Source: Lytechinus pictus (lineage: Eukaryota). Taken from it: a DNA stretch of 64,000 nucleotides. Below, one piece after another: positions 1 through 53,100 of this stretch. Below the pieces are notes generated by a model. That model made no database searches and had not been told where the DNA came from. It saw only the letters and a list, made by a program, of their open reading frames with translations. Both the position numbers and the translations under genes were made by a program. Each line of letters opens with the position of its first letter. The first letter of the stretch is position 1. The stretch lies in assembly GCF_037042905.1 (NCBI RefSeq), contig NC_087250.1:17238001-17302000 (forward strand), in the 5' to 3' direction.

Positions 1-573
1 ACTTCCGTACCATTCACCATCAACGGTACTCCACCCCCGATGTCGTCGACCAAGCAAAGGATCTGCGTTCACAGCCTCCTACCCCTCCCGTTCAGAAGCC
101 ACCTACTTCTAACAGGTTACGACCGGGAGGTTTGACCGGGTCGGCGAGGGGTAAAGGGGGAATCGGAAGGAATGTTAAGACAGCGTTGGGTAACATCTCG
201 AAGGCTCTGGTAAGCTCCACATGCTTTCATCATCCTCTTGAAAATTCTGATTAATTATATTTGTACATCTAGATCTGTACATCCGCCAGGCTTCCTCACG
301 ACCGTCCTTTAAATCATTGCTTAAAACTTACCTGTCTCTTTCCTAAATCGTTGTACAGTATCATTGAAAATGCCTTATGCTTAACTTTGCTTTAATTATG
401 CTTGGTTTTATTATGAAGCTATATCAGTAATTTCTATTCTTTAGCTAATTTGCATTCTTAAAATAACTTTGTTTTATATTATGTTAATATTTATGTCTTA
501 CACTGTAAAGTGCATAGACAGCTTTCTTATTATGTGCTTAATAAATCTATCTTATCATTATTATTATTATTTT
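1..573 (+). mobile_element. Decayed 3' end of an L2/CR1-group LINE
   Basis: About 305-337 translates to SFKSLLKTYLS, a typical L2 ORF2 C-terminus. It is followed by an AT-rich 3'UTR ending in AATAAA and a (TTA)n tail near 555-573. Confidence 0.55.
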
Positions 574-4903: not shown

Positions 4904-5056
4904 CAACTCGTTAACCTGGTCCAACAGCAAGAATCCATTTTATCCGATAATATTCAACAAATCAAGGAGCTTGAAGCTTATATTGAGAAGCTTCTACTGC
5001 GTGTGATGATGGAGTCCCCAGATCTTCTCGATATGAACCGTCCCATCAAGTTTTGA
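4904..5056 (+). CDS. RAB11FIP: Terminal coding exon of Rab11-FIP (C-terminal Rab11-binding domain)
   Basis: Acceptor ttttttacAG at 4902-03, phase 0. QLVNLVQQQESILSDNIQQIKELEAYIEKLLLRVMMESPDLL matches the class I FIP motif ELEDYIDNLLVRVMEETPxIL. Stop TGA at 5054-56. Confidence 0.9.
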   Translation, partial: QLVNLVQQQESILSDNIQQIKELEAYIEKLLLRVMMESPDLLDMNRPIKF

Positions 5057-16839: not shown

Positions 16840-17240
16840 GGTTTATTTCCAATTGGTCTAATGCAAATTCGTCCGATTGCCAACTCGTCTACTGTCATTT
16901 GGTCTACTATCAGTTCGTCCACTCACCACATGTTCTACTTTCATTTAGTCTAATGCCATTCCGTCTAATAACCAGTTGATCCAATAGCCATTTAGTCCAT
17001 ATACATACCATTTGGTCTAATTGGACTAAGTGTTAAATTGTGCAAAATGAATGAAAATGAAATGGATATTAGACCAACTGGTTATGAGACGAAATTGTGA
17101 TTAGAGGAAGCGATGATTCGACCAAATGGTTAATGGGCCAAATGGATGTTAGACGAAATGTTGATGGACGGAATGGCATTAGAGTAAATGAAAGTAGACC
17201 ATGTGATGAGTTGGCAGTAGACGAATTGGCAAATTGCCTT
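16840..17240. mobile_element. Palindromic repeat element built of TTGGTCTAAT / ATTAGACCAA units; second copy ~61035-61430
   Basis: The left half carries tggtctaat repeats and the right half their complement. Similar sequence occurs at 61 kb. Confidence 0.75.
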
Positions 17241-18781
17241 GGTGAGGGGGGGGGGTCATATATATGCCTGTAATTTTTTTGAAAGAAAGGTTTGTGATGT
17301 TTCTTAATTATTGATTTATGTGATGACGTTGATTACCATAGGCGGATCCAGGGGGGGGGGCGAGGGGCCCGCCCCCCCCCCCCCATTGGCGGTGCAAAAA
17401 AAGAAAAAAGGGGGAAAGAAAGAAAAAGAAGGGAAAAGAGAGGAGAAAAAAAGAAGGAGAAACATAAGAGGAGGAAGACGAGTGAATAAGATGAGGGGAA
17501 GACTTGGAAAATAATTTTAAAAATCTTTCACCCCCCCCCCCCTATTGGCGGTGCAAAAAAAGAAAAAAGGGGGAAAGAAAGAAAAAGAAGGGAAAAGAGA
17601 GGAGAAAAAAAGAAGGAGAAACATAAGAGGAGGAAGACGAGTGAATAAGATGAGGGGAAGACTTGGAAAATAATTTTAAAAATCTTTCATGTCACTATAC
17701 AGTATAACATTTTCGCTCGCGCTTCGCGCTCGCATTGCCTTTTAGGTGATTTATATATGTTGCTCAATATCGAGCTTAAATATCAAATTTTGAAGTCAAT
17801 ATACATAACATATTTCAGCTCGGAAATAGAACTTTCATAATTTTGTTTGATTTACAAATTGATTTTTAAAAAGTGCTCTGTAAACATTTGTTTTATCTTA
17901 TGAATATTAACATTTTCTGCTCGCGCTGCGCGCTCGCAAACTTTGGTTTATCGGGTACCTATTATTTTCCTGAATTCCATAAAGTTCTCAAATATCCCCA
18001 TTTCATGACAGTTTATCAAAAATTTCGGCTCGCGAATTGCGCTTGCATCATTGATTTTCATGATGAAAAAAGGGTGTTTAGAATGCCCAGATTCTAGGTC
18101 GAAATCTGAAACACGCGCACGCATTTTTATTTAGATACGCAGCTTGTTCTCTATTTAAATCATTATGAGCCTATATATCCAGTGTCAGATCAGAATATCA
18201 AAAACTTTCTGCTCACGCTTTGCGCTCGCATTATTAATGTAGGAAGATACCAAATAATACCCAAATCTTTTTATCATTTACAAATTATGAAGAGAGTGTC
18301 CCGTTTTTAAGTTTGAAATCTCATTTTTTTCCCTGCTCGCGCTCACATCAATTGTTTGGTTATATACTTATACTGTTCATTATTACAAAAAGTGCATAGA
18401 ACGTTAGTTTTTTAGGCAAGAACTTCAAAAAAAATTCAGCTCGTGCTTCCCGCTCGCATTATTTAATCATTGAAATATGTATCGTCTTATCGGCTAACTG
18501 CAAGACATCCATAACAGGTCCTTTTTTTACATAGCCAGAACGAATTATGAAAATTTCTGCTCGCGCTTCGCGCTCGCAGTAATTCCCGACCTTTCGTTGG
18601 AGAACGCGAACGCTCATTTACGACGGTAGTTGATTTTGGAAGAGACTTTTTGGGCCCGTCGTCATGGTCGTAAAACTCTGTCCTGCAATGCAAATTGTGT
18701 GACATGAGATTTGTTTTTCGTTTCGCATCTGCAACGAAAACATCCAATATGCGTTTCGTGTGCAAAATTCTGGTTGCTACT

Positions 18782-19177
<396 letters not shown>

Positions 19178-19230
19178 TAGGACGACTTTCTAGAGCCACA
19201 TTTGGTTTCTCCCAGAGCTCGAGAGGCCGC

Positions 19231-19530
19231 CCAGAGGGCCCACTTCCATTGACGAGTGGATACCAGGCGCGACCACGCGTAAAAGGGGGACAGAGTGGGC
19301 AAGTACGTTACGTATAGGCCTATGTAACGTTTTATAAGGGTGTCAAACACGATGTTTAAAATACTGAAAAAAGGGATATATTTCCAATACATGTAGGATT
19401 TCACAAGCCAAATACTTGTTAAGAGATGCATTTTCATAATCTGGAAAAGACTTGCTTTCCTTGTTTAGGGTGCTTTTCGAAACTCCATGGTCGTGCCTGG
19501 TATCCACTCATCAATGGAAGAGGTCTCCCC
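19231..19530. mobile_element. MITE nested just downstream of H4
   Basis: About 35-bp TIR ccacttccattgacgagtggataccaggcgcgacca / tggtcgtgcctggtatccactcatcaatggaagagg. Confidence 0.8.
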
Positions 19531-20466
19531 GTGAATTTGAATCTAATCCCCCATTTCTGGGGAAAGTAAAACATAATGCCCATTACATTGTGTGCTACAG
19601 ACATATCGTTTGTGTAGAAGGAGTAAGCAAAAGTAAAAACCCCGCAAATTTTACTGGTGTTCAGACGTGTTAAGCATGTTTAGGCCTATTGCCTATGCCA
19701 TGTACATATCAACGCATGCGAAATGGTTTCGGCTGGAGAGGTGATCTGACCCATGGAATCAATTGCCAGTGATCCACCAATAATCCACATTAAATGCAAT
19801 ATCGATTCGATGGACTGTAATGATCTATATCTAAGCCTTAATTCAGTTAGTTTTTCCTCACTACATATGTACTCGATTTGTTTGAAAAACCACTTTCTTG
19901 TCCATGTCCATCTATTGTAGGCCCCGCATTTCGAATATCTCCAGCCAGCTGTCATAGTAGAGGTTCACCGCCGGCTCAGGGGGCATATACGATGATGACC
20001 ATCAGTCGTTATGTACATGCATGTATGGTGCGGGTGTCGCGGGAAAGAATTTTGCACACGAAAAGCAGATCTATAGGTCCTGTAACCCCCTGTAACACAA
20101 AGCTTAGCATTGATTGTAGAGCAGTTTTCTACGTTTGATTATATTGACTATAATGTACAATCAATCTTAAAAATCAAGTGTATGATTAAGCGTTAACTTT
20201 TGTGTTAGGGAACCCTAATATTAGCGTCCGTGAGGATTGCGAAAGGTGGCTGTTATCTTGTTACATACGCATCTTGTTTAGGTTCACAAATATTGCCCAG
20301 AATGTTCAATTTTCATGACAAAATACATAAAATTTCCAAATTGTTTAGCTCGCACTTCACGCTCACACTATTCAAATAGGGCTAATGAAATTATTACACA
20401 TTATGTTGTTTATAAGAATAAAGCTAAGAAATTACTGTTAGGACATGGGCGTTTTGCCCCCCCCCC

Positions 20467-20498
<32 letters not shown>

Positions 20499-22215
20499 GA
20501 ACAAGAAAATAAGAGAAAAGGAAAGGGATAAGGGTGAAATATATTATTTTCCAAATATTATGTCAATTAAATCTATCACGAACTTTGATTTTTGTAATAA
20601 AATTGTTAAAAATTTTGCTCGCTCGCTTGTAACTTCTTATTAATTTTACGTGATACGCCATATCGAGCCCCCTCAAAATTTTTGGCTCATTACGCCACAA
20701 GGACAACCCCTTCAAAGAAACAAACAAAAATCGACTTTGAGCGGCCAATCTGGGAAAATATGGGTGAAAAAAAATTCGCCCCCCCCCCTATTGGCGGAGG
20801 CTGGATCCGCCCCTGGATTACTATATGTCGTTAACAGTCAAAGCAACATTGGGGCCATAAAGGGGGTATAGGCCTACTAGTGAATAATATTCTGATAAAA
20901 GACAAATCAGTTGAGCGATCAGGTCAAATATGCCACATTGTATACGATTAATACCAGTGTGTGGGTGCGCCTATCCTAGGGGTTGACTACCAACTAAAAA
21001 GACTGACATCTCTACATGCATGACATATATTATATGGTGCGTTTCTCAAAATCAAAATCACATAAACAAGTGGTATTGGAGGTTCTCACAAGTAATTGTT
21101 TACTTCGTTTACGCTACTGATCCAAAAGGCAAAAGGTCGAGTACAGTTGATTTTTCAGGTAAGAATAACGGCCTTCTAATAGAAGGTGTGGGGATTAAAA
21201 CCGACGTGCTGATGAGGTGGGTGGATCGGGGGCTTTCATGACCAAAAAAGCCAGAAAATGAAAGGAAACTGATGATGATATCGTTTGCTAATTATTATAT
21301 CAAAATATATTACAAAATTTGAGTTTTGTATAAATAAAGGTTTAATATTTTTCCCCAAACGCAATGAATATACCCTCTTATTGTTTTATTCCTTTATTTT
21401 TAATTTTTATTTGTTTATTATTTTTTTGTGGGCGGGGTGTCATTACGCACTCTAGATGGGTATACTATCAAAAGTACATTATACTATTAATTATATCTTT
21501 AGTAAACTACAATACATTTTGTCAAACTGGATAAAATTTTATGTGATATAGTTCAATAATCATAAAGATGTGAAGAATTTTCATTACACATCAGGAAACC
21601 TCTCCATTCAAGTTTTGTATCATGTAGTTACTGTGTGGTCAGGTGCAGCTGAGGGGTGCAACTAATTATTCTCGTTCAACCACGGATGTGAATGAGCAAG
21701 TATTTTCTATATGTTCAGGACTTGGGGATGAGCTACTGACTCCCCCCCCCCTTCTCTCCCTGATGAATAGATAAGATTATGGATTTAAAAGTATTCATTT
21801 CCTTGTATTTATCCTTAAGTAGGCCTGTAATTAATAAATCAATTTTCATGTTTCGTTAAATATATGCCAATTTTCTTAAACCTTCATTAAAACAAATTAG
21901 TTTCGTCCCGCAAGTTGTTGGCAAAAAGTCTAAAAAAGGGAAACAAATATTAAAAAGTGAATGAAGACGTGAATGGACGACTGTGTGTGATTTATTTAGC
22001 ATAATAACTAAACTTGGATTGACAGGTTTTTTGATGAGTGCTAAAAGAAGGCTCATATCTCTGTGTTCGATAGACCAAATCGAATAAAGTTTAATAAAGT
22101 TTATATAAAGTTTGCATTAAACAAAATAGTTTACGAATATACTAATTTATATACATTTTCACATACTAATTGTCATACAAATTTTTATGGGACACGCTGT
22201 ATTATCTGTTACAGA

Positions 22216-22293
22216 ATGAAACTAAGACCCTTCCTCGCCTTTCTTCTGTGTGTTGGAGTCGTCAGTATGATCGTCGTGGTAGTCGACGCCAAT
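22216..22293 (+). CDS. Signal-peptide part of a small secreted prepropeptide (5' part of TE-split exon)
   Basis: Acceptor tctgttacAG at 22213-14 and ATG at 22216. MKLRPFLAFLLCVGVVSMIVVVVDA-N has a basic N-terminus, a hydrophobic core and a V-D-A cleavage site. Confidence 0.75.
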
Positions 22294-24637
22294 CATGGGC
22301 GGAAATCCCAGGGGGGACAGGGGGGACGTGTCCCCCCTACTCAAAATAGTAGGGGGGACACAATAGCAAATGTCCCCCCTACTATTTTGGTCTTTTTATA
22401 TGATGGTAAGAAATACATAATTCTAAATCGAAATAAAACATGTATTTTGGGACGAGATGACCTTACTTTGGCGATGATAACCTTGTTGTTGCTTGTCAAT
22501 TTTTCCCGCCCCTTGTCCCCATAGGCGGATCCAGGGGGTCGAGGGGGAAAGAAAAAAGGAAGGAAAAAAGGAGGGGAAAGGAGAAACAGAAGAGAAGGAC
22601 GGCGAGTGCATAAAATCAGATGAGGGGAAGACTTGGAAAATAAAAAGAATCTTTCGTGCCACTATATAAAATTTTCGATCGCGCTTCGCGCTCGCATTGC
22701 CTATTAGGTGATTTACATATCTTGTTCAATATGGAGTTCGAATATCAAGTTTGGAAGTCAATATACAAAACATATTTCACCTCGGAAATCAAACTTTCAT
22801 TATTTTGTGCAATTTACAAATTGGTTTTTAAAAAGTGCTCTGTAAAATGTAAGTTTTATGGTCTGAATGTTAACATTTGCTGCTTGCGCTGCGCGCTCGC
22901 AAATTTTGATTTATCAGGTACCTATTATTTTCGTGTATTCCATAAAATTTTCAAAATATCCCTCTTCAGGTCTGATTGTCAATACGTATCAGCTAGCGCG
23001 CTGCACGCCCGCATTTTGATTGGCGAGTGATATGAATGTTTCAATATTGATTATACAACAAAATACTTAAAATCCCCTTTCATGACAGTTTATCAAAAAT
23101 TTTAGCTCGCGATTTGCGCTCGCATTAATGGTTTGAAATATATTAACTGATGCATCCTATTCATAATCACAAAAGTGAAATGTCCAGTTTTTATGCCATG
23201 ATATCATCAGATTTCGCGCCCTCATTAGGCATTAATAAATATATTAATTTAATAATCAAATTGTCCCTTTTGTTTCATCTCGCGCTTAACAAGAGGAATA
23301 GGAAGATAGTCATCATTTTCATATGATGACATGTCGTCAGGATGTCCCGGTCCTATGTCAAAACTCAAAGTAATAATAATTTTTAAGTGCGATCCATATC
23401 CACCTTATAATTTTCTACAAAGTGCGTGAAATATAAAGCTGAAATTGACTCTTTTTTCAGATCGGAATATCAAAGTTTCATGATTTTCATCATTAAAGTT
23501 GTATTTAAAATGCCTAGATTCTAGGTCTAAATATGAAACACGCTCGCGCATGTTTATTCAGATACTCAACTTGTTCTCTAATTTAAATCATTATCCAGTT
23601 TCCGATCACAATATCAAAAATGTTCTGCTCGTGCTTTGTGCTCGAATTATTAATGTAGGAAGACCCCATATTACTCATCCTTTTGATGATTTACAAAACA
23701 TGAACAGAGTGGCCAATTTTTAGGTCTAAATCTCGATTTTTTTTTTCTGCTCGCGCTTCGCGCTCGCATCAATCGTTAAATTATATAGCTATCCTGTTCA
23801 CGATTACAAAAACTGATTAAAATTTTCCATTCTTTCTTTAGAAAGTTCAAATTTTTTCAGCTCGCGCTTCGCGCTCGCATTTTTAGATTGTTGAAATATG
23901 TAACGCCTTCATGGCTAAGTGCAAGCAGTACTTACCACGTACCTTTTCAACAGGTACCAGTTCAAAACGTATATAAACATTTTCTGCTCGCACTTTGCGC
24001 TCGCATTATTGATACTCATCCTTTTCAGGATTTACAAAACATGAATAGAGTGTCTCGTTCAGTAAATATTAATGGACTAAATCTCGAAATTTTCTGCTCG
24101 CGCTTCGCGCTCGCATTAATTGTTTATTTATATACCTTTTCTGCTTGAGTTACAAAAAGTGCTTAAAATTTCCATTCTTTAGGTGAAAATGTATAAAAAA
24201 AACAGCTCGCGCTTCGCGCTCGCATTATTTGATTGTTAAATGCTACTTTAACAGGTATCTTTTCCATCAATTCATTTCTGCTCGCGCTTTGCGTTCGTGG
24301 TAATTATTAAGTTGGATACACATCTTTTTCAGGATAAAAAACATTTCCCAGAATCAGTTCAAATTTTTAGGAAAAAATACATAAAATTTCCAAAAAATTT
24401 GCTCGCGCTTCGCGCTCACACCATATAAATAAGGATTATGATATTGTATATTAATTCATAAGAATGAAGCTCAGAAGTGACTAATGAGGACTATCCCTTC
24501 AAAGAAACAAACAAAAATAATCTTCGAGCTGCCGATCGGGGAAAATATGGCTGAAACAAATTTCCGTCCCGCCTATTGGCGAAGGCTGGATCCGCCCCTG
24601 TGTCCCCCCTACCCTTTGCGAGAGATTTCCGCCCCTG
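22294..24637 (+). mobile_element. hAT-like non-autonomous element (8-bp TSD) containing a nested 6-bp-TSD element (22520-24600)
   Basis: TIR CATGGGCGGAAATC / GATTTCCGCCCCTG with TSD acgccaat (22286-93 / 24638-45). The inner element is flanked by tgtccc. Confidence 0.9.
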
Positions 24638-24645
24638 ACGCCAAT

Positions 24646-24721
24646 GATGAAGATATTCAACTCCAATCGCGACTGTTGCAGAGGCTTTTCTCTATCAAAT
24701 CTACAGGCGTCGGCGAAGAAG
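24646..24721 (+). CDS. Acidic pro-region of the secreted prepropeptide (3' part of TE-split exon)
   Basis: After removing the TE and one TSD copy the frame continues DEDIQLQSRLLQRLFSIKSTGVGEE. Donor AAG|GTAGCA at 24722 (phase 1). Confidence 0.7.
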
Positions 24722-25116
24722 GTAGCAATCAAAAACACTTTTATGTATTCTCTGTCTTCTCATGTCATGTATGAGTGGTGGAAGTGATATTTTTATATGT
24801 ATACCTGAATGCTAGGGGACCGAAGGCACAATAGGCCCACTCCGAGGGACCTAGTGATGACATATGCCTTACCAGAGGTCACTAGCGCACCAGGTTACGT
24901 TATTTCCCAAATGGTATCATCCGTCGGTTTGAAAAGAAAAATGACAGAGAGAAGAAAGTGGGGGAGGATAACTAAATTTAAAAATCGGGGGGGGGGGGTG
25001 AAGCCCACCCAGCCCAACCCCACCCGGTTCTGCGACCCCTACTAAAAGTCATTACTTCACGATTTGTTTTTCTTAACCGTTAGTTTTAAATGCATTTTTT
25101 GCTTGTGTCTTTGCAG

Positions 25117-25181
25117 ATGTGAGAAGTGGAGGGCCACCCAAGTGCCATTGGTGTGGGCCCAGACGCAGTAGAACATTATAA
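25117..25181 (+). CDS. Last coding exon of the secreted prepropeptide
   Basis: Strong acceptor ttttttgcttgtgtctttgcAG at 25115-16. In phase 1 it gives DVRSGGPPKCHWCGPRRSRTL followed by TAA. Confidence 0.6.
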
Positions 25182-25209
25182 GCACCGGGTATGGATATGG
25201 AATCTATGA

Positions 25210-27170
25210 CAGTGGCGGATCCAGGGGGGTGGCGCAGGGGGCGCGCGCCCCCCCCCCCCTAATATTTGAGCGGCGCCGAAGGCGCCGCTCAAAAAAAATA
25301 AAAGAAAAGTAAAAGAAAGAAAAGGCGCTGCTTGAAAAAATAAAAATATAGGAAAGAAAAGAAAAGGCGCCGCTTAAAAAAATTATACACTGATATAATA
25401 TTAGCAACAGTAAGGAAAGACTATCCCCCAGCAAAGCACAATCATATCATCTTCCTTATCTTTTCTTTTAACTACCCTTTTCCCAACAACTTCGCCGGTT
25501 AAAAATAATCAGCAGTGCGCTGCCTGCATATAACTGGCGCCAATCAAGAATAATCAGCGCCACCTTAATCTAAATCGGCGCCGGACAATAATAATCAGCG
25601 CCATTTGGTTATAAATCGGCGCCGGTACAGAAAAATCGACGCTGCCTGAGTTCTAAACCGGCGCCGATCAAGGATAATCAGCGCCACCTAAATCTAAATC
25701 GGCACCGGGCAAGAATAAACGGCGCCATCTCGTTATAAATCGGCGCCGGTAAAGAAAAATCGGCGCTGCCTGAGTTCGTAACCGGCGCCGATCAAGGATA
25801 ATCAGCGCCACCTATATCTAAATCGGCGCCGGACAAGAATAATTAGCACCACCTGGTTAAAAATCGGCGCCAGTCAAGAATAATCGGCGCCTCCTGGTTC
25901 TAAATCGGCGCCAGTCAATAATATGAATTGCCGCTGCCTGAATCTTACGTGACGTCGGTAAAAATAATCAGCACTACTTGTTCTAAATCGGCGCCGGTCA
26001 AAAATAATCAGCGTCCCCTGGTTCCAATAAATAGGCGCCGGTAGAATAATGAAGAAGGGCCTATTGCCAACCAAATCTAGATCGGCGCCGGTCAAGAATG
26101 ATCAGTGGCACCTGGTTATACATTTTATTGTTGAATGGTCATAACAAAGCTTATCGCATGCCCTTACAGAGTGGACTGGGGCGGGGCAGTTGCCCACAGA
26201 ATGACAGATGTCATGAAATCTTTAATTTATTTAAAAAATCCCAGAATCATACAAAAGCGTAGAGCACATCCTTTAATTTTGATCTTATTTTCCAATGCTT
26301 TAATAAAAAGAAGGTCAGTCACTTTTCTTCTTTACACATTCCACATTGTGCTACCTCTATGGCCTTTAGTTTAAGACAGCTACTATAGTGTTGTGTAAGA
26401 TGATTCGATATTTTAGCCCAAAACTTTGCTAAAACCTGTTGCTAGTACCAGGAGTGTATAATTACGCAACCAGTCGTATATTGAGATTGAGCTACACAAC
26501 TCGTTCTTTATTTAAAATCGTGCTTAAATTATCCGCTTCTCAGATTGGAATATAAAAATTTTCAGCTCGCGCTTCGCGCTCGCATCATTTCTGTAGCAAA
26601 ACCCCATACTTTTCATGATTAAACAGGACTAAACGTCAAAAGAACTCCCGCTTCGATTTGCAATAATCTTTTGCTGGATATAATCTTGTTCTTTATTACA
26701 AACGTCCATTAAACTGTCATTTTTTTTTCAAATCGAAATATCAAAATTTTAAGTTCGCGCTTCGGGCTCGCATCTATTGTTTTTTTAGATACCCATCTTA
26801 ATCATTGGTACCAAAAATGCATAGAATATCAAGCTTTCTGGTCAGAATATAAAGAAATTTCAGCTCGCCCTCGGCACTCGCATTATCTGTGTAGTGAGAT
26901 ATGTATCCTCCTCATGAGTTACTACAAACAGTCCTAAACAGGCACCTTTTTCCTGTTTTCAGGTCAGTATACTAAAAATTTCAGCTCGCGCTTCGCGCTC
27001 GCATTAATTTGTTGGTGAGATATGTGTTTCTATCTCATGAGTCATATAAATATATATATATATATGTGTGTGTTTGTGTGAGTTTGTTTGTTTTGTGTGA
27101 TATCGAGCGCCTTTGGAAAGTTGATTCATGATTTGCCCCCCAAATCTTAAAGAAAGGATCGACGCCCCTG
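25210..27170 (+). mobile_element. CAG..CTG non-autonomous element with internal minisatellite
   Basis: Ends cagtggcggatcc / ggatcgacgcccctg and internal GCTCGCGCTTCGCGCTCGCA repeats. No clear TSD. Confidence 0.65.
25490..26120. repeat. GGCGCC-containing minisatellite (~40-bp unit, ~120-bp higher-order period)
   Basis: Repeated aaatcggcgccgg..aagaataatcagcgccacct units. The block gctgcctgagttc..aaccggcgccgatcaaggataatcagcgccaccta recurs about 123 bp apart. Confidence 0.85.
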
Positions 27171-28599
27171 TGTGTATATATATACATAGTAAAAAAAACT
27201 TGTATCTCTATTAATATACAACAGTATTGGCCTCATCGCAATAAAAGGGTTAATACACGAGATTTTGAAATCGCACATAACATGCATAATTTGTGTTACT
27301 TTTTGCTTGTTTCTTTCTTTAATAAGTTTTTCAATCTCTCTCTATACATGTTTTTAGAAAGATTATATGTTTAAATTGATGTATATTTCTGTTATAATGA
27401 GATATGTTTAAGTGGACTTCAGGGAATGGTCGTACGCAGCAAGGGGGAAGGAGGGGGGGGGGGCACATTCGCGATCTGCTGTTGTGAAAAACAATTTTTT
27501 TTTTCCTTAACATTTCATGAAAACTATATGAAAAATGTGCAAATGTGAGATGTGCACCAAATTTTCGAGTCTTGCCCCCCCCCCCGGAAATATTATCTGC
27601 GTGTGGTCATGCAAAATGGCATGACTGAAAATCCTACATTTCTTGCTGAAGGAAAACAGGCCACGGCCAGGATTCGAACCCACGACGGTCTGTTTGAAAA
27701 GCAAGAGTCAGAACCACTAGACCACGCCACGGCCAGGATTCGAACCCACGACGGTCTGTTTGAAAAGCCAGAGTCAGAACCACTAGACCACGACCCGCCC
27801 ATGAATGGGTAAAGTGAAAGTGGTGTGAGGAGGTGTGTGGGTGCGTGCGTATTTACCCTTATACCCTTGCCATATATTCTCCCATTCACACGAATCAATG
27901 ATATGAAGTAAATTTTGTTGTTGCGGCCTTTTTTTTCTAAATCATGATGAACTTTATATGAAAAAGAAAACATTCTTGACATTATTTTAGATTAAAATAA
28001 ATGTACCTGATGAAAAAAAATCGATTCATGTGCCATAAGTACATGAAACTAAATTCTTTGCATAAATGTAATGGGACAATATGAAATGTGGGCATGAGAA
28101 TATGCACATTTTACCCCCCGAATGAATTATATAGGTTTTACTGTGAATTTTTATCAGAATCTGCATTAAAAAGAAAACAAAAAAATATACCAACATGCTG
28201 AAAGAATGATTTATACATGTGCTGAAAGAATGATTTATAACCATGTATAAATCATTCTTTCTAGCGCAGGGGTTTGTTGCATAAAAATGGAGCAAAAGTT
28301 AGTTGTTGATTTGATGGTGGGTTTTTAGAGATATGAGAAATTTAAGTGAAATAATAATAATAAAGATTCAGTTTCAACGTAAGCCTGATTTTGCATGATT
28401 ATTTTAAAAAAGAGCATAAACGAAAACGAAAAAGAATGCCCAAATGTTGTTAATGTTTGCATATTTCTGAATTTCACTTCCTTAACATCGGCGCAAAGAG
28501 TGTGCCGGTGGGAATTTGAAAAAAAAAATCAAGTTTTTTTTAATGCTCTTTGATTCACACATGACTCTTTTTTTTTTGGGGGGGGGGTACTGCGTGTAT

Positions 28600-29047
28600 T
28601 ATAGACCAGTTCGAAGTTACTTCATGGACAATTTTGGTCAAATTAACTTTCATTTCTTTCATTAAGATAGGCAGATTTCAAAGCAAGATAGTACGTACGC
28701 ATGCCTTACATAGCGAGATGAAGAAATTGAATAGACCAGGTGACTAGAATAGCACATCAATGAACACTCTATGAAGGTATTTGTTGCATTTCTACTTTGA
28801 ATGCATATTAGAGGACGTTGTACTTGGCAAACTGTGAAATATACCAGTCATTCTTGGACGCATTGTTTTTTGTGGATGTGAATGAAAAACACAATTCAAA
28901 AGAATATATGAATAATCCAGACATCGAAGTTGGTGCTTATCTCATTAAATTTTTAAACCACTATTTCACTTTAGTACAAACGACCTTCCTCTAATCATGC
29001 GCGGAATCCTCTGATCATGCGCAGAGTGGAACTACGAACTGGCTTAT
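28600..29047. mobile_element. MITE
   Basis: TIR tagaccagttcgaagttac / ggaactacgaactggctta. Confidence 0.55.
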
Positions 29048-30372
29048 TCTCCATAGGCAGCACCCCATTTATTCTGGAAGATGTGTAATAATGAGAAAAT
29101 GTAACGAGAATGACCTTTATTTAGTAGTGAAACCCTTTTTTAGTATGCTTTTCAAATTTCTCGGGACCAAACATTTTGTAGTGAAAACTTTTTTTTTTCC
29201 TTTTCAAATTTACATCAGCACCTCCAGGAGAAAAAAATCGTTCCCTGGACACTGATACTAATGAGATTATATTGATTAAAGTATTTGGCTAACCCTAAAT
29301 TTTTTATCTCATTTGTAATTTAAAATCTGAAGGAGTTTTGACGAATTTGCGCGGGAAAACCTTGTTTCCTGGGCATGAAAAAATGCTTCCCATACGTTCG
29401 TTGATCTCCATGTAGTAAACCTCTCGTGGGTTAAATACTGTTTATCTTTCGCTAATTTTTTAAACAAAAATAATGGACTGTTAAAAAGTACGTACTGAGA
29501 CGCACAGAAAATCTTAAATATCCATAGTGACCTTAAAGTTTCGCAAATGGTGGGCACATTGAAGTAAAAAAAAATCAAAAACTTTTGCCACTTGGATTCC
29601 AATGAATTATTAATAACAAAAACAACAAAGTCATGGAATATTATTCCCCCCTTCCCCATTTCTGCCTTTAAATGCCATTTAAGTTTCCATTCCTTGTATA
29701 GTTATCTTCATTTAAATATTTCTTAATTTGTACAGCAAAATTTTATATTATTCGCCTAAACTTAATATTATTTCTAAAACAGCAACCCCATTTCGCTCTT
29801 TATACCCCTTCTTCCCCCTCTCCACCCCCTCTCTTTCTTTCTCGCTCTCTCTCTCTCCCTCTCTCTAAATATCTATCTCGATATTTCAATCTTTTCCTTT
29901 AAGGACTTTTGCATGGTTGTATATATAACACAAGTCTTCGAAATAAAAAATTAAGGCCAAAGAATATGTGTCATTACAGCACCAAGACCATGCATTTGTA
30001 CCAAATGCATTTGTAATATAAAGACCGCCTTCCTCCTACCCCCCCCCCCCTTATCTTGTATTCCTCGCGTTCAATGAACACCCCTTTCACACACAAATAC
30101 ACACAATGACTTTGCACACACATCCTGCATGTGACAAATAAGCATTTTTTTCTGCATTTCACTTCCTTCTTTATCATATCATCTCTTTCCCCTTTCTCTT
30201 TCTATATAGAACCGGCACATTCTTCTTCACATATCTCTTATCTTTCTATTATTCTTTCTCTCTCCCTCCCCCTCTTTAAAACTCACCTCGCTACTTCTCT
30301 AATGCCCTTTCTCTCTCACTCTCCCAATCTCTCTCTCTTTCTTTCTTCTCTACTTCCCTTCGTCTGTCAACA

Positions 30373-31285
30373 TTTGATTTGATTTGATTTATTTATTTCT
30401 GTTTCACAATTGTACATAATATGATAAACATAACATAGCAAGGTCGAAAATACTACAAGACAAAATATAATATATATGACATAATCATAGATTTAAGGAA
30501 CACAATTCAGTAAATAAAGATATCTCAAATGACATTTGTATTTAAAAGTAAAACGGAGGGACTTGCCGAAAAAAAGCAAAGCTTGTACAAGAGACGAGCC
30601 CCTATCTTAGTTACATTACAAAATTACAACAAATAAATATTGGGTCTTAATAATAATTTTGTTTAAAAATAAATACAAACAATTTTTGTGCACTTGACAA
30701 AAACGTAACTGATGGATCGTGTGAGAAAAAATTACGTTTTACAATATTATAAGAGAGGGGGAGGTGAGGGGGGGGGACAGGAGGGACAGAGGAGTGCAGT
30801 ACACTAAGTAGAAAGAAAGAAGAAGGCGGGCAGCAGGAGCAGGTACTTTGGCTAATTGCAATTTTAAGAAGAAAATATAATACGCATATACACAAAAGTC
30901 GAGTATAATTAGATTAGTTATTCAGCTTGACCTGTTTGCGACGAGTATTGCAGAATTAACATTTTTTTCAGTTTGCGTTTAAAAATATTTACATTGGGGG
31001 ATTCTTTGAAATCTTGAGGCAGAGAGTTCCAGTAGGCAGGCCCAGAGAAGACAAATGAATTCTTTGCAAATAAAGTTCTTGTTAGAGGAAGGTGATAATA
31101 TTGTCGTTGCCTTGTTGGGTGGCAGTGTATGGATGTATTTTTACGGTACATATTAGAGAAAATGGCGGGAAGGTCGTCCTTGCTTAATTTGAACATAAAT
31201 TGACTAAGTTCGAAAAGATATATGTCACTTACTTTAAGAATGTTATTTTCAAAAAATAAGATATCAATATGTGATCTAAAGTGTG
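30373..31285 (-). mobile_element. CR1-group LINE 3' fragment
   Basis: ORF 30918-31196(-) ...HCHPTRQ..YHLP..RT..AKNSF.FSGPAYWNSLP...FKRKLK resembles the C-terminus of the 47.8-kb LINE ORF. It has a 3'UTR and an (AAATC)n tail at ~30373-30395. Confidence 0.85.
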
Positions 31286-31876
31286 TTCGTTCTATATATT
31301 ATTTTTCAACCATTCCTGCATGTCCTTTATACTCCTTTGTAGATTTAAAAAAATGAACTGCATATACAGCTGTTTATATATATATATATATATATATATA
31401 TTTACATTTACTTCATTTATGCTGACAAAATTAGTTGATTATAAAATTACATGATTATTTGTGCATTGCCATTCTCATCGCCATGGTGATGACCTCAAAA
31501 TACACCCTGCAAAGATTCTGATCAATTTGTAAACATTTATTCAGATCGGTTGATACTTGGTGTTTAGATCAGTAATGTGTATATATGTACATTATGGTAG
31601 TGGATTGGCAAACTTCTCTCGATAAGTACATAAGTACTATTGCCATAACCCATGGTTAAGATATTTCCTTTCTATTTTCACATGACTATTTTCTGCTCTC
31701 AAGTAGGTCAAAATTATTTCGTCTTGATTAAAGTCTATATCCTAAAACATTGGCTTTTTCTATTTGACAGCAAGTGTTAGTAATTCACAACAAAACATAA
31801 TGGAAATATATTTTATTTAACACAAAACGTATACTTTCTACTCATTTTGCAATATACACTTAAAATAATAAACCAT

Positions 31877-32131
31877 TACACACTGTAAAAACTGTGGTGT
31901 TAAAACTGACACCAGTTGGTGTTAATAGAGGACCACACCCTACAATGCCCTAAGGTGTTGAAATTACATCCTAGAGATTGAACATAACACCAAAGAGTGT
32001 TAAAGTAACAACCAAAGGTGTTGTAATAACACCTATAGGTGTTAAACTAACACTGTCAATTTAACACCGGTGTAAAATAACTGATGTGGTCCTCTATGTA
32101 CACCGGTTAACACCACAGTTTTTGCTGTGCA
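31877..32131. mobile_element. MITE
   Basis: TIR tacacactgtaaaaactgtggtgttaa / ttaacaccacagtttttgctgtgca. A related remnant lies at ~58277-58500. Confidence 0.75.
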
Positions 32132-47503: not shown

Positions 47504-50121
47504 TGATTCAATTTTATTTCTGCACTCAGGCTACAAATATGCAACATAACATCTGGGTGGTACAATCAAGTTTTACAAAACAATTAAGCAATAGTCATAG
47601 TAAGCAATGAAAAATAAATATTAACAATAAGCAATATTCAATGAAAAGAAAATAACAGTTTAAACGAATGCAGGAGACCGCCATCGTGAGCGGTTAAGCT
47701 TGAAAATGATGGCGGCCTCGTAAAATGGTACATAAATGTCTTTCTTCATTGATCAAGTGGGTGCAATGCAGGTGCAGGTGCGGGTGAAGTAAAGGGCAGT
47801 TGAATAATTAACTTGAAGAGGGGGATGCATATGATTCGATGATTTTTCTTTTAATAGTGGCTTTAAGTGAGTATATTGTTGAACATGACTTAACGTTGTT
47901 TGGAAAATTGTTCCAAATATCAGGACCATAATGTCGAATTGATTTGTGAGTTATTAATAATTTAGGGTTGGTGAGATGAAGGTTTCCTGATGTGCGGGTT
48001 GGGTAGGAATGAACAGACCTGTTAAACCTAAACATATCATTAAAGGATGGAGGAAGTTGATTATTAAAATATTTGAACATAAAGATGGCTACTTGGATCG
48101 TATTGATATCAAAGATTTTTAAGGTTTTAAGTTTATGAAACAATGGGTTAGAATGAGCCAAGTAATGTGACCGTGTGCACATACGGATTGCTCTTTTTTG
48201 TAGTTTAAAGACAGAGTTTAGTTTGAAAGAACCACAATTTGCCCAGACGATATTACAATATGTTATATAAGGGAGGACTAATGAATTGTATAACAAGAAT
48301 AAAGTTTTGTCAGGAAGAGTGAATTTTAACTTGGAAATTATCCCAATACTTTTAGAAACGGACATCGTAACATGGTGTATGTGTTGATTCCAAGTCAAAG
48401 ATTCGTCCATAATTACACCTAAAAATTTAGATTGTTTTTTCTGTTCTAGGGGGGTGCCGTCAATGTTAATGTCAATCGGTGTGTTAATGTTATGGGAATG
48501 GTGTCTGAAATACATAAAATGTGTCTTTTTTGTATTAAGGGATAGTTTATTGGCTTTGAACCAGTTTGATACTTTATCAATTTCACGATTAACGATATTG
48601 GTTAATGAATTAAGGTCTCTATGAGAATAAAATATATTTGTGTCGTCGGCAAATAAAACGAAGGATAAAATAGAGGAGGTTGTAATAATGTCGTTAATGT
48701 AGAGTAAAAATAAAAGTGGGCCTAAAATGGAACCTTGAGGGACACCACATCGAACTAAAAGAGAATCAGAGTCGCAACTGTTAAAATTGACATATTGCCT
48801 TCGATTATTTAAGTAGTCTTTAAAAAATGAGAGACATTGACCTCGTATTCCATAATGGTTGAGTTTGGATAGTAAAATTTCATGGTTGAGGGTGTCAAAC
48901 GCTTTACTAAGATCGCAAAAAATGCCAATTACGTGTTCTTTGTTCGCTATGGCATTTGTTATTTTGTCATAAATTTGAAGTAATGCTAAGTCTGTTGAAT
49001 ATTTTTTTCTAAAACCATATTGATTACAATTTAGAATGTTATATTTGTTTATGAATTTATAAAGTCTTATGTAAACTATTTTTTCTAGAATTTTAGATAT
49101 TGTTGGAAGTAATGAAATGGGACGGTAATTACTTATTTCGTGAGGGTTGTCTTTTTTAAAAATCGGATTTACTTTTGCTATTTTGAATAAGTCTGGAAAA
49201 ACACCTTGAGATAGGGAGTTATTAAATATGTGAGTCAAAGGGCTGGCAAGAGGGTGAATTATTTGCTTAAGAAGAGACATGTTAATGCCATCGCAACCAG
49301 AAGATCTAGAATTATGAAGGGAACGAACAATAGTGATTATTTCGGAGGGGTTTGTTGGGGCTAAAAAAAGAGATTCTTGATTTGGATCTGAGAGGTAATC
49401 TGTAAAATGTGCGTTGGGACTATTAATTTTGTTTGCAAGCTCGGGCCCAATATTGGTAAAGAAAGAATTAAATGAGTTTGCATAATTAGTGGGATCAAGT
49501 ATTTCAGATCCATTGAGAGTGATTTTATCATTAGGTGGGGGGTGTGTTTTTGTACCCAACACTTCTTTGATAATTTTCCAAGTCGTATTTGTATTTCCAT
49601 TGGCATCGTTAATTTTATTAGCAAAGTGCAATTTTCGGGATATTCGAATTAATTTTGTTAGTTTATTACGATATATTTTATATTCTTTTAAAGAATCATC
49701 AGTTGGATTGCGTAAGTGATATTTATATAGGCGATTACGTGTCTGTATGGACTTCAGTAAACCTTTAGTTATCCAAGGATTTTTGGGTTTGTTACGTTGG
49801 TTTTTTACTTTACCTATAGGGATATTCTTTTCATAATAATGTTTTAATGTATTATTGAAGTTATTGTATGCAATATTGGGATTTACTTCATTATAAACAT
49901 CATCCCATTCTTCCAAAACTAGGTCTTGCTTCAGTAATTCTATATTTTGTTTAGATTCTTTACGATAAGTATATTCTTTGTTTGATTTGGGGAAAGAAAG
50001 TTTACATTCACAAGTTAAGAAAATAGGCAGGTGGTCCGAAACTTCAGAACATAAAATCCCTCCTGTGGCTTTGTTATTATGAACATTCGAAAATATGTTA
50101 TCAATCTGAGTTGATGAATTC
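47504..50121 (-). mobile_element. 5'-truncated CR1-group (Crack/L2-related) LINE
   Basis: Contains an uninterrupted ORF2 remnant, a 3'UTR and an AATAAAATTGAATC end. Flanked by aatat (47499-503 / 50122-26); host sequence is continuous across it. Confidence 0.9.
47808..50121 (-). CDS. LINE ORF2: C-terminal end of APE endonuclease plus reverse transcriptase
   Basis: Motifs IDNIF..SDHLP (APE end), YRPISLL, QYGFR, DLSKAFDT, GVPQGSILGPLLFLLYIND and FADDT. No stops over about 770 codons. Confidence 0.95.
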
Positions 50122-53100
50122 AATATGGTATACAGAGGTCTGTGGCGGCCATTTTTAATATCAAGATATAAATATTTTGTCAAAAAATGTTTTTTTCAGA
50201 GAGGATATCACTCCTGCAACACAATTACATACATTTTATAGCTAATTTGCTAGCAATTTTATGACTTTCATGGGTAAAATGCATATTTTGGCGGCCATAT
50301 TGGATTTTGCCAATTTGCGGAAAATGCTGAAGGTTACACGAGTGGCATCATTCATATTCGTAATCAGCACCCTCGAATTGACAAGAAACCATCAAAAAAT
50401 ATTGTATATATGAAAAAACAAGGTTATGCCCCTTCTATCCTGGACTATTAAGAATGTTCCTTAATGGGTACAATCAAACATTATGTAAACCAGTCCTTTG
50501 AAATATTAATAAGTAGCAAAATTGTGTAGATTGTGTTTCTCTCCCAAAAGAATCTTCTAGCATAATCTGTTCATCAATCAATGACAAACTAACGTTAAAT
50601 CCACGTTAAGTCAATCTTATCGACGTGCCAGTCCTTGAAAAATTATGATTGACATTTACTAATGTTACTTCGGGTTTTTGAAGAATGTGGTCTTCTGGAG
50701 GATTGAGAAGATGAACTAGAACTGCACTATTAACAGCTCTTCCATAGAGTGTTATCATCTCTAAGGGGGTAAACATAAGTGTGGGCAGGGTAAATGCTAG
50801 TCCAGTCGGCTATCCACGAACATGCCCGCTTTGATTAATGCATGGACTTACAGCGAATGATGAATGCCACCATTCTACGCCGTATTGTGAAATTCGATAA
50901 GGGGGCTCGGCAAACATTATTCATGCTGCCTTCGAGCAGGTACAGCAGCCGCCTCTGAGAGACGCGGGTTCGATTCCTTAAACCGAGGGAGCAAGTGAAT
51001 CTCAGTATATGAGAGGAGGTTTGTTATGGGAAATCGAATTAGTTCTTCCCATTATTAATATACATGTATTCTTATTTTGTCATTACCGTATGTTGTCTTT
51101 CTCTTTTTCACTGTTTCATGGTCCTCTTCCTCCTCCCGCGCTCTCCTCCGAAGCATTTTTTTTTATTCTTACGTCTCTTCTTCTTCATCCTTCTACAGTT
51201 TTATTATTCATCTTCTTCCTTTTCTTCTCCCTCTTCTTTACTTCGTCCTCCTTGTCTTCTTTCTTTTCTTCTTTTCCCCCCTTTTCTCCTACTCTGGCTT
51301 CTCCCCCTTCCCCTATTCCTCTTCTTTTTAATTCTTCTATTAATCTTTCTTTACGTCCACCCCCCCCCCCCCCATTGCACTTTTTTTTATTCTCTTCTTT
51401 ATGTTCCCCAGGCCTACCATGGACCTCCTTACATCTGCTTGTTAATTTTCGCTCTCATCCTTTCTCCCTCCTGTAGTTATTTTTTATTAATTTTTTTTTT
51501 AATACAGTCGTCCCTCTACTTCCTGATCTTCCTGATCATGCTTTATGCTCATCCTTTTTTTTTTAGAGGGGGTGTTGTTAAATCACTGACGTTGTCAGTA
51601 CCACCTTTTATAAATGAAGAGCTTGATTAAAAGGGGTTAATCTATTGTTTTTGTCCAAAATTGATTTAAAAAAAAAATAACTATATCTATTTTATACATG
51701 GGAATCAAATGCCCCATATCGCATTTGAAAATAGAATTGGGACGATTGGTAAAAATGAATTGCAAATTTAAGTTTTATTCCAAAAGGAGCTAAATCCAAT
51801 ACCGGGTCCTTTAAAATTGGTCTGTGCAAATTTTGATGAAAATAACATATTTTTACTTTTTTATGAATAATCGAAGATGATAGCACTATCATAATGTCCA
51901 AACAAAACAGCTGTGGATAAGGGAAAGTGGTGAATTTACAAAAAAAACAGAAAAACACCATTAGCTCCTTTTGGAATAAAACTCTTCAAATATGGCGTAG
52001 ATGTGCCAGTGCCTGTATGGAAGAAATGCTCGTGAAATTCATGGACATGAAATTAAACAAGTGAGAGATGAGGGGGGATGGGTTGATCAGAATTCCGCGG
52101 TAACGCAATAATGGCAATGACAAATATTGAGGTTAGCTTCGCGGTAATATTGGAAAGATGTTTATTAGATTGTGAGGTAATAAGAGACACCTAGGCCTCC
52201 CCTGCACATCGCATCTCGGCTTATCCTCTATCTTTAACCATTCTACATCTCTTTTTCCTCTTTTCTTCAAGGACACCCAACAGATTGAATGCACTTTTTA
52301 TTCCATGTATACCCCAACAATATGATATAGTAATCATATTGATAATACTGATAATATCTTATTCAACGGAGGTAACCATCCCATCTCTTGCGATCAGTAC
52401 GGCTCTCCTATAACGGGCCTTGCATAACAAAAAGGGTTGTTACTAATACACTCGATTTTGATGCCGAGCGCCAGGCTAGAAAGACAGAGGACTCGTTTTC
52501 AAAGTCTTTTGGTATGACTTGCTCAACGATCGACCCAACAACTTCCTATTTCTCGTGGCACGCCAGGCTCTACCGATTAAATTGAATTCATTTATTTTCC
52601 GTTAAAAAACATGTAAAATCAAGAATATACAAACATTACAAAGTATAGAAATGAGACATTATACAAATGAGGTATCATACTTTAAATAAATGCAAAATAC
52701 TTCGTTTTATATATACATATTAAGAAAATCGGATGCCCGTGGAAGCAGTATGCTTGTAGGGTTGGGTCACCCAGAACATGTCACCTTTCAGATAAAAACA
52801 AGAATTTCAACTCTTTAAACAAATTTTGGGAAATCAGAAGAGGGGAAAGTGTATAGAATGTATCACATTTTAGATGTTATTTCTCACTTCTCAACTATGC
52901 CGAGTGCTAATCCATGAAGTGATTAAAATAATTTTGGACAATCTGTAAAAATAAGTTACTCTTTTAAGCTACTGATTTAGTAAGACTTCTGGTTTTATGC
53001 GAAGTATTAATTAGGTAAAAAAGGTAAGCCATTATCCTATCAACATGTCAAATGTTAATTGTTTTCAGCCGGGAACGAGTTCTAGGAAGCCGTCTGAAAA

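Follow-up and report, generated by a model that had tools for sequence, protein, structure and literature searches.

The stretch of Lytechinus pictus DNA analysed here (64,000 nucleotides, referred to as the window) probably holds a real gene for a secreted precursor of 72 residues. Given a gene, its exons are very likely chained as read from the DNA below, and given both gene and chain, a signalling role of the product is modestly favoured. A real, lineage-restricted, single-copy prepropeptide gene with a small disulfide-looped signalling peptide is therefore put forward tentatively, as a reading that taken whole stays somewhat short of an even chance. Two rare patterns, a signal-peptide-like exon and a short two-cysteine last exon, are connected in matching phase by the best donor of the neighbourhood and an acceptor among the top 0.4%, which suggests a gene.

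Exon chain of the candidate gene

The features, in window coordinates, are as follows.

21060..21158, + strand: putative non-coding first exon; no ATG within; single-copy region; 5' end putative
21159..22214, + strand: intron 1 (GT-AG); acceptor AG ends at 22214; GC 0.32
22215..22293, + strand: exon 2, pre-element part; ATG at 22216; 25-codon signal-peptide-like stretch and one codon; single copy
22286..22293, no strand: left TSD copy, 8 bp
22294..24637, no strand: presumed non-autonomous hAT-type DNA element, young subfamily, 2,344 bp
22406..22411, + strand: in-element splice donor, phase 1; frame open from ATG to donor
24638..24645, no strand: right TSD copy, 8 bp
24646..24721, + strand: exon 2, post-element part; 25-codon mildly acidic pro-region; single copy
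24722..25116, + strand: intron 2 (GT-AG, phase 1); donor GT at 24722; acceptor AG ends at 25116
25117..25181, + strand: last coding exon with stop (25179-25181); single copy
25125..25160, + strand: mature peptide of 12 residues (predicted), with C-H-W-C at 25143-25154; RR at 25161-25166; cleavage predicted
25210..27170, limits approximate, no strand: second repeat-derived block; 41-nt tandem units, element-like ends

The coordinates that a preliminary description had given all check, and each of its three coding pieces, translated separately, yields the same reading. With the proposed splice from 24721 to 25117, the host pieces and the last exon add up to the claimed 72 codons, intron 2 being in phase 1 on both sides; the host pieces stay in frame across the TSD, and the element is the sole interruption, with no other stop or frameshift. 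Element discounted, signal exon and last exon lie about 500 nt apart. The donor of the proposed first exon (GT at 21159-21160) has the top donor score within 20800-26500, while the start of that exon at 21060 has no independent support. The acceptor at 22214 ranks 75th of 3,065 among the plus-strand AGs of the window and that at 25116, a strong one, 11th (top 0.4%); the donor at 24722 is moderate (rank 242 of 3,474, score 1.1), yet the top one in 24640-24800. T occupies codon position 2 in 16 of the 26 codons of the pre-element piece, as in hydrophobic coding sequence. GC content sets the pieces apart only modestly: 6-14% of windows of equal size match them in GC, and intron 2 itself reaches 44%.

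The upstream gene, a Rab11-FIP gene, finishes near 5056 with its own domain and stop, 16 kb before the locus, so the exon-like pieces are not part of it. An alternative frame, one base earlier and open for 26 codons, was considered as the last exon of that gene. It was rejected because of this separate ending and because 16 of its 26 codons have T in third position, where reference exons have 22% (P 2e-5). The two frames are not told apart by a third-position likelihood score (-1.6 against -1.0).

The acceptor-ATG-signal-peptide pattern is found once in the window (the locus); other loci amounting to 183,748 bp yield it once more, as do 960,000 bp of Markov sequence. Within 267,748 bp there are 815 strong acceptors, of which 28 are followed by any short two-Cys exon and one, again that of the locus, by a short two-Cys last exon that has basic residues to either side. 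The criteria for both counts were fixed after the locus was seen, and the control loci take in repeated copies of the element and loci chosen for C-H-W-C-G. The signal-peptide-like start at 22216 is the only such start in 84 kb.

The inserted element and the interrupted allele

As the preliminary description had proposed, a transposon occupies 22294-24637, 2,344 bp flanked by an exact 8-bp duplication; among lengths of 4-13 tested, 8 alone matches. Its ends form short inverted repeats that are imperfect, with pairing at 14 of the 16 terminal bases, and its longest open frame has 128 codons, none being a transposase frame; on these features we take it to be a non-autonomous hAT-type element. 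There are 26 near-full-length matches including the element itself, the others at 88-97%, and an exact 8-bp TSD flanks 17 of 20 fetched copies. The nearest copy differs by 1.0% substitutions, and the insertion, one codon past the signal-peptide-like stretch, is thus very young. It is expected to be polymorphic. A second repeat-derived block begins 28 nt past the stop codon; a TSD was looked for at this block and none was found.

The element brings a donor of its own (score 4.3, rank 33 of 3,474, against 1.1 for the native donor of the gene), and an unguided exon scan chose the exon 22215-22405 that ends there. Neither the youth of the insertion nor this in-phase donor had been remarked on in the preliminary description. 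With a stronger in-phase donor in the element, the interrupted allele may still be live: transcripts may be spliced from this donor to the last exon, by which the mature peptide would still be made and element-derived residues would take the place of the pro-region. Within the element, transcripts could also be trapped by a strong acceptor at 22524 and by five polyadenylation-like hexamers; function of the allele is probably reduced or lost. Since the insertion, neutral change at 0.65% would have altered only about 1.4 of 216 nt, so that the intact frame says little on activity after it. Selection on the internal donor was considered and rejected, the four closest copies sharing its phase and open frame. 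Non-autonomous hAT-type elements in exons can be partly spliced out, as with maize Ds. Ds-like elements share the 8-bp TSD, the short inverted ends, the missing transposase and a donor near the end, whereas splicing is here only predicted and would replace a pro-region rather than restore an exon.

Predicted precursor and mature peptide

The prepropeptide layout proposed earlier, like the exon chain, is well supported by the anatomy of the sequence. The N-terminal signal peptide expected of neuropeptide precursors is recognised by a hydropathy and charge heuristic, with a basic n-region, hydropathy of up to 3.15 over 11 residues and a V-x-A end, and would be cut off after Ala25. The short acidic pro-region (5 D/E, 3 K/R, pI 4.7) would be cut at the lone Arg that opens the last exon, and cleavage and trimming at RR would leave the single-copy, non-amidated 12-mer S-G-G-P-P-K-C-H-W-C-G-P, the two cysteines of which may close a tight C-H-W-C loop (predicted monoisotopic mass 1224.52 reduced, 1222.50 oxidised). 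This 12-mer would most likely be a signalling ligand, a neuropeptide or peptide hormone.

The peptide had been described as cationic and enclosed by basic cleavage sites. The first attribute does not fit the 12-mer, which has one basic residue and pI 7.8; the second holds for the RR on the C side, while the putative N-side site consists of a single Arg preceded by acidic residues. Working criteria for neuropeptide precursors name an N-terminal signal peptide and dibasic sites enclosing the peptide, besides neural expression, a processed peptide and a receptor (PMC9793003). The rule for single-Arg cleavage calls for a basic residue 4, 6 or 8 positions upstream, and at none of these places does the lone Arg have one; the 12-mer also lacks an amide-donor Gly. 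Together with the want of a homologue, the moderate donor and the modest GC contrast, these two features weaken the signalling-peptide reading.

Searches for relatives

Every search used pieces of 20-50 residues, extended into intron or element sequence where the frame stayed open, and the homologue negatives are weak because each piece was searched alone. The protein word-index gave no candidate for the pro piece at lengths 27-88 or the signal piece at lengths 26-86, and against longer proteins five candidates for the pro piece, none at E<=10. HMMER with the 34-codon last-exon frame against 1.84 billion representatives returned two matches, both tandem-repeat proteins and rejected, as was a single zinc-finger match in the PDB (E 2.7). 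In the ESM Atlas the best match of the last exon (0.82) is at chance level and the signal piece had no usable match; Pfam gave no family for any of the three pieces or the read-through frame, Rfam no match over 17000-32000, and the read-through product is absent from the exact-sequence collection. Metagenomes held no match to an eight-residue pattern and 53 to a seven-residue one, none in a related context, and the four pattern matches in viral contigs are all unrelated. A look-up of sequencing runs for 24638-25225 listed none, an outcome that is neutral as to transcription. In the genome, the C-H-W-C-G codon pattern occurs 28 times against 16 for a control, with a similar setting only at the locus, and P-K-C-x-x-C-G stands at 61 against 50 for its control pattern among the matches listed; no paralogue was found within the window or 20 kb upstream. 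The echinoderm neuropeptide papers compared contain no matching peptide, the main S. purpuratus neuropeptide list lying outside this comparison. Of the suggestion that the gene may represent an undescribed family, it thus stands that no known family was matched; with no second member found, there is as yet no family.

These negatives bear on the simplest alternative, that the gene does not work, being either exon-like pieces aligned by chance or a gene that the insertion disabled or that had already decayed by then. It would also agree with an exon chain known from genome sequence alone, with the crowding of the locus by two repeat insertions, the first inside coding sequence and the second just past the stop, with one false-positive signal exon in 184 kb of control loci and with the post hoc criteria. 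The searches are, on the other hand, insensitive for pieces of 20-50 residues, the two rare patterns co-occur in phase with ranked splice sites, and the element aside there is no stop or frameshift, which makes a non-working gene unlikely. Gene callers often pass over products as short as 72 residues.

Comparison with known peptides and alternative functions

The peptide had been called unlike strongylocins, centrocins and somatostatin-type peptides, and this is borne out by the defining features in the portions of the published accounts drawn on here. Echinoderm somatostatin-type peptides (SS1) carry CxxxFxxxxxxC where the predicted peptide has C-x-x-C; those of MCH type have Met/Ile after the first Cys, a basic residue before the second and a long loop, and those of vasopressin/oxytocin type follow the signal peptide directly and precede a neurophysin domain (PMC4772807), features which the candidate, without a Pfam match, does not show. 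Closest in layout are the echinoderm two-Cys precursors (somatostatin-type Spnp16/Spnp19, MCH-type, and the unassigned crinoid PCNP3 and PCNP19), which likewise consist of signal peptide, spacer and one Cys-pair peptide, in somatostatin- and MCH-type precursors also at the C-terminus. Single-copy status and a lone C-terminal two-Cys peptide would fit such neuropeptide precursors, as far as these are described in the sources used (PMC4772807; PMC9793003). The candidate differs in its length (72 against ~100-130 residues), a loop of two residues instead of CxxxFxxxxxxC, the monobasic N-terminal site, the short tail after RR and the lack of sequence similarity.

Somewhat less probable than a non-working gene is a host-defence peptide of coelomocytes or epithelium, for which RR would stay uncut and an 18-residue cationic Trp loop peptide would attack microbial membranes. 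This form has four K/R, no acidic residue and pI 10.8 behind an acidic pro-region, and urchin antimicrobials are likewise built in echinoids from signal, pro-region and a cationic peptide with Cys and Trp, the latter brominated (PMC4805251). The candidate is, however, single copy and much shorter, with two Cys in its last exon and 72 codons, against the six cysteines, three disulfides and 5.6-5.8 kDa of strongylocins and the heterodimer of a 30-32-residue heavy and a 12-13-residue light chain, joined by one disulfide and cut from 119-121-residue precursors, of centrocins (PMC4805251). It is also absent among the de novo peptides reported in a shallow survey of coelomic fluid as well as spines from three urchins (PMC4857251).

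A mini-peptide secreted for redox chemistry or metal binding, whose C-x-x-C would exchange thiol-disulfide in folding or cross-linking of secreted proteins or bind Cu/Zn together with His, is improbable. In sequence, the closest motif match is with the redox conopeptides Li504/Li520 of cone snails (M-superfamily), prepropeptides that have C-P-W-C-G at their end and measured potentials of about -240 to -281 mV, in which Trp matters for exchange and Pro/Hyp is important, according to the part of that study used here (PMC11391441). The candidate shares the prepropeptide with a C-terminal C-x-W-C-G, and its two-residue loop has the spacing of oxidoreductase active sites, the echinoderm neuropeptide loops compared being wider. 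The likeness nevertheless spans five letters, His replaces Pro/Hyp, and the motif lies not in an amidated tetrapeptide but inside a non-amidated 12-mer, flanked and with Gly then Pro, in another phylum; it would be convergence at most, not membership. A slimmer chance still is given to the founder of an undescribed echinoid family, in which a redox-active C-H-W-C loop would act as mini-oxidoreductase or redox-switched ligand behind an element-supplied pro-region.

Venom peptides usually occur in families, and in spider and cone-snail peptides the acidic end of the pro-region is a processing motif, which the candidate's E-E-D-V-R resembles. A role in venom, or in a defensive secretion from pedicellariae or spines, is nevertheless very improbable for a single-copy gene without similarity in the piece-wise searches, several urchins having venomous pedicellariae with poorly described components but those characterised, in the sections of the account used, being lectins, PLA2s, a 10-kDa holoprotein and small molecules (PMC12193733).

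Implications

Echinoderms have many receptors without ligands, as the part of the literature used here describes (PMC5627052), and their peptide inventories have been built on gene models and few transcriptomes, so that a gene for just 72 residues, interrupted in its reference allele by a young transposon, is of the kind that annotation overlooks. If neither transcript nor orthologue exists, the locus is merely dead or a product of chance; the candidate is cheap to test, involving a single 12-mer, a single mass and a single synteny anchor. Redox activity of the C-x-W-C loop, if real, would bring to a deuterostome a peptide class hitherto described from cone-snail venom ducts, and if the donor of the element is used, the locus would be a clean natural example of a transposon swapping a propeptide.

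Results

The candidate is a putative 72-codon prepropeptide gene of three exons, whose coding part is interrupted by an inserted element one codon behind a signal-peptide-like start.

Features of the window
96-209, 1740-2040, 2651-2829 and ~4904-5056, plus strand: exons of the upstream gene, the last of them with an RBD-FIP domain
18842-19180, plus strand: isolated histone H4-like copy, tracking H4 for ~90 codons and then diverging; it lies among repeats and is probably a dispersed pseudogene or a captured fragment
21060-21158, forward strand: putative non-coding exon 1 of the candidate gene
22215-22293 and 24646-24721, forward strand: exon 2, in two pieces
22294-24637: inserted element
25117-25181, forward strand: last exon
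47808-50195, minus strand: LINE-type copy, an open frame of 795 codons that encodes a reverse-transcriptase domain (PF00078, E 2e-34)

Translated piece by piece, the start comprises 26 codons, basic at the N-terminus and continuing into a long hydrophobic core, the piece after the element 25 mildly acidic codons and the last exon 20 codons with C-H-W-C, RR and the stop. The preliminary description had proposed this host reconstruction, spliced from 24721 to 25117, together with a strong donor at 21159, and both hold, as the pieces sum to 72 codons, intron 2 is of phase 1 on both sides and, scored with an approximate generic matrix, donor 21159 is the best in 20800-26500. By the same matrix, acceptor 22214 ranks 75th of 3,065 and acceptor 25116 11th, outscored within 20800-30000 by two acceptors that both lie in repeats, while donor 24722 is 242nd of 3,474, yet the best of 11 in 24640-24800. 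Every piece is single-copy at the DNA and protein level. The GC contents of the three pieces, 49, 46 and 52%, are reached in 9, 14 and 6% of windows of equal size, intron 2 has 44%, and GC is of little help in telling gene from chance.

A repeat block starts 28 nt past the stop codon and holds, at 25493-26123, an array in which a 41-42-nt unit containing a GGCGCC palindrome is repeated ~12 times, with a higher-order period of 124 nt. Elsewhere in the genome (contigs C2-C16, at least 13 places), a near-identical stretch opening with the strong donor-like CAGGTAAGTAAAT forms a repeat family in which a consensus splice donor is built in.

That the locus is dead or assembled by chance appears unlikely. 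The window, 183,748 bp from other loci and 960,000 bp of Markov sequence each contain the combination of acceptor, ATG and signal a single time, and a short two-Cys last exon with basic residues on both sides follows one of 815 strong acceptors, namely 25116 (any short two-Cys exon, 28 of 815), figures that are strong hints and not P values, since the criteria were set post hoc, after the locus had been seen, and the control DNA is only partly independent. Even when no acceptor is required, the gene's own start is the sole signal-like one in the window and the 20 kb upstream. The single match in the other loci (L049:833-925, outside the window) has a weak acceptor and a stop after 29 codons and is taken as a false positive.

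The 2,344-bp transposon with target-site duplication claimed previously, at 22294-24637, was likewise confirmed, being flanked by an exact 8-bp duplication, ending in imperfect inverted repeats and occurring in many copies. The window lies on a 28.5-Mb contig of an 812-Mb animal genome, in which the element has at least 26 near-full-length matches including itself, the others 88-97% identical, a lower bound with 40 of 8,829 candidates scored; 17 of 20 copies inspected show an exact 8-bp duplication. Its longest open frame has 128 codons. Such a duplication, inverted ends and no long frame mark non-autonomous hAT-type elements, and by these marks it is one. The insertion is young, because among the matches scored the nearest copy differs by 1.0% substitutions and an alignment of 2,307 columns with the four closest copies gives the element 15 private changes. 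Just inside its left end lies a perfect inverted repeat of 19 nt around a 10-nt loop (22342-22389), which, upstream of an internal donor, could affect splicing. A GCTCGCGCTTCGCGCTCGCA-type motif, in many copies ~110 nt apart, is common to the element (22640-24420) and neighbouring repeat blocks (26537-27000, 17900-18580, 20331-20377), which suggests that they belong to related element families.

Starting one base earlier, the piece before the element has a second open frame, which reads like a Ser/Arg-rich C-terminus. The upstream gene ends at ~5056 in an RBD-FIP domain that scores 23.7 bits (cut-off 23.3); it is therefore of Rab11-FIP type and stops 16 kb before the candidate. This distance and an excess of T at third positions (16 of 26, against 22% in reference exons) rule out that frame as the end of the upstream gene; third-position likelihood gave no separation between it and the signal-peptide frame. 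Outside the window, a further exon of this gene, at L059:2294-2457, resembles the end of the class I FIP C2 domain and had no Pfam and no relevant PDB match; contig C10 carries a second RBD-FIP gene (L115).

No relatives of the candidate were found, a blank that indicates neither novelty nor absence, as queries were pieces of 20-50 residues and libraries mostly microbial. A search confined to sequences given as text yielded no paper with the peptide's letters; no match occurred in the text passages or 6 supplements of PMC5627052 or in 3 supplements of PMC6586643, and 7 supplements of PMC9793003 held only an unrelated W-C-G match, in PCNP3b. Parts of PMC4772807, PMC6209648, PMC4805251, PMC12193733 and PMC4857251 (both peptide tables) also served for comparison.

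Discussion

The interpretation put forward in the preliminary description is supported in part: the anatomy agrees with its prepropeptide layout; no family can be assigned. The signal peptide would be cleaved after Ala25 and the precursor cut at the single Arg opening the last exon and at RR, and trimming would leave a 12-mer with one disulfide and no amide (computed mass 1222.50 Da). A neuropeptide or peptide hormone is tentatively the best-fitting role for a gene that is present in one copy, begins with a non-coding exon and encodes a lone two-Cys peptide at the C-terminus, although this reading is weakened by the lone Arg, which is not a canonical convertase site.

If RR escaped cleavage, the product would be an 18-mer containing four basic residues and a Trp, which could serve in defence; we consider this rather improbable. 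Still less probable is a function like that of the redox conopeptides of cone snails, prepropeptides assisting disulfide exchange which share the C-x-W-C-G motif (PMC11391441); membership in that group is ruled out, as the candidate has His for Pro and lacks amidation. A venom role ranks last and is very improbable.

Read directly through, the frame enters the element for 76 codons up to a stop at 22522-22524. The allele could nevertheless still yield the unchanged mature peptide behind an element-derived pro-region by a predicted 84-codon route, because element donor 22406 is stronger than the gene's own (4.3 versus 1.1), matches the phase of the last exon and has no stop before it; an unguided exon scan chose 22215-22405 as an exon. 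Against this route, the element holds a strong acceptor at 22524, more donors and five polyadenylation-like hexamers. The in-phase donor is no sign of selection, since it is common to the element's four closest copies among the matches scored. Divergence above 1.0% is common between alleles in sea urchins, so the insertion may well be polymorphic. The candidate is thus, as far as its sequence goes, credible as an orphan prepropeptide gene carrying a young insertion, and the Rab11-FIP-type gene is a useful synteny anchor.
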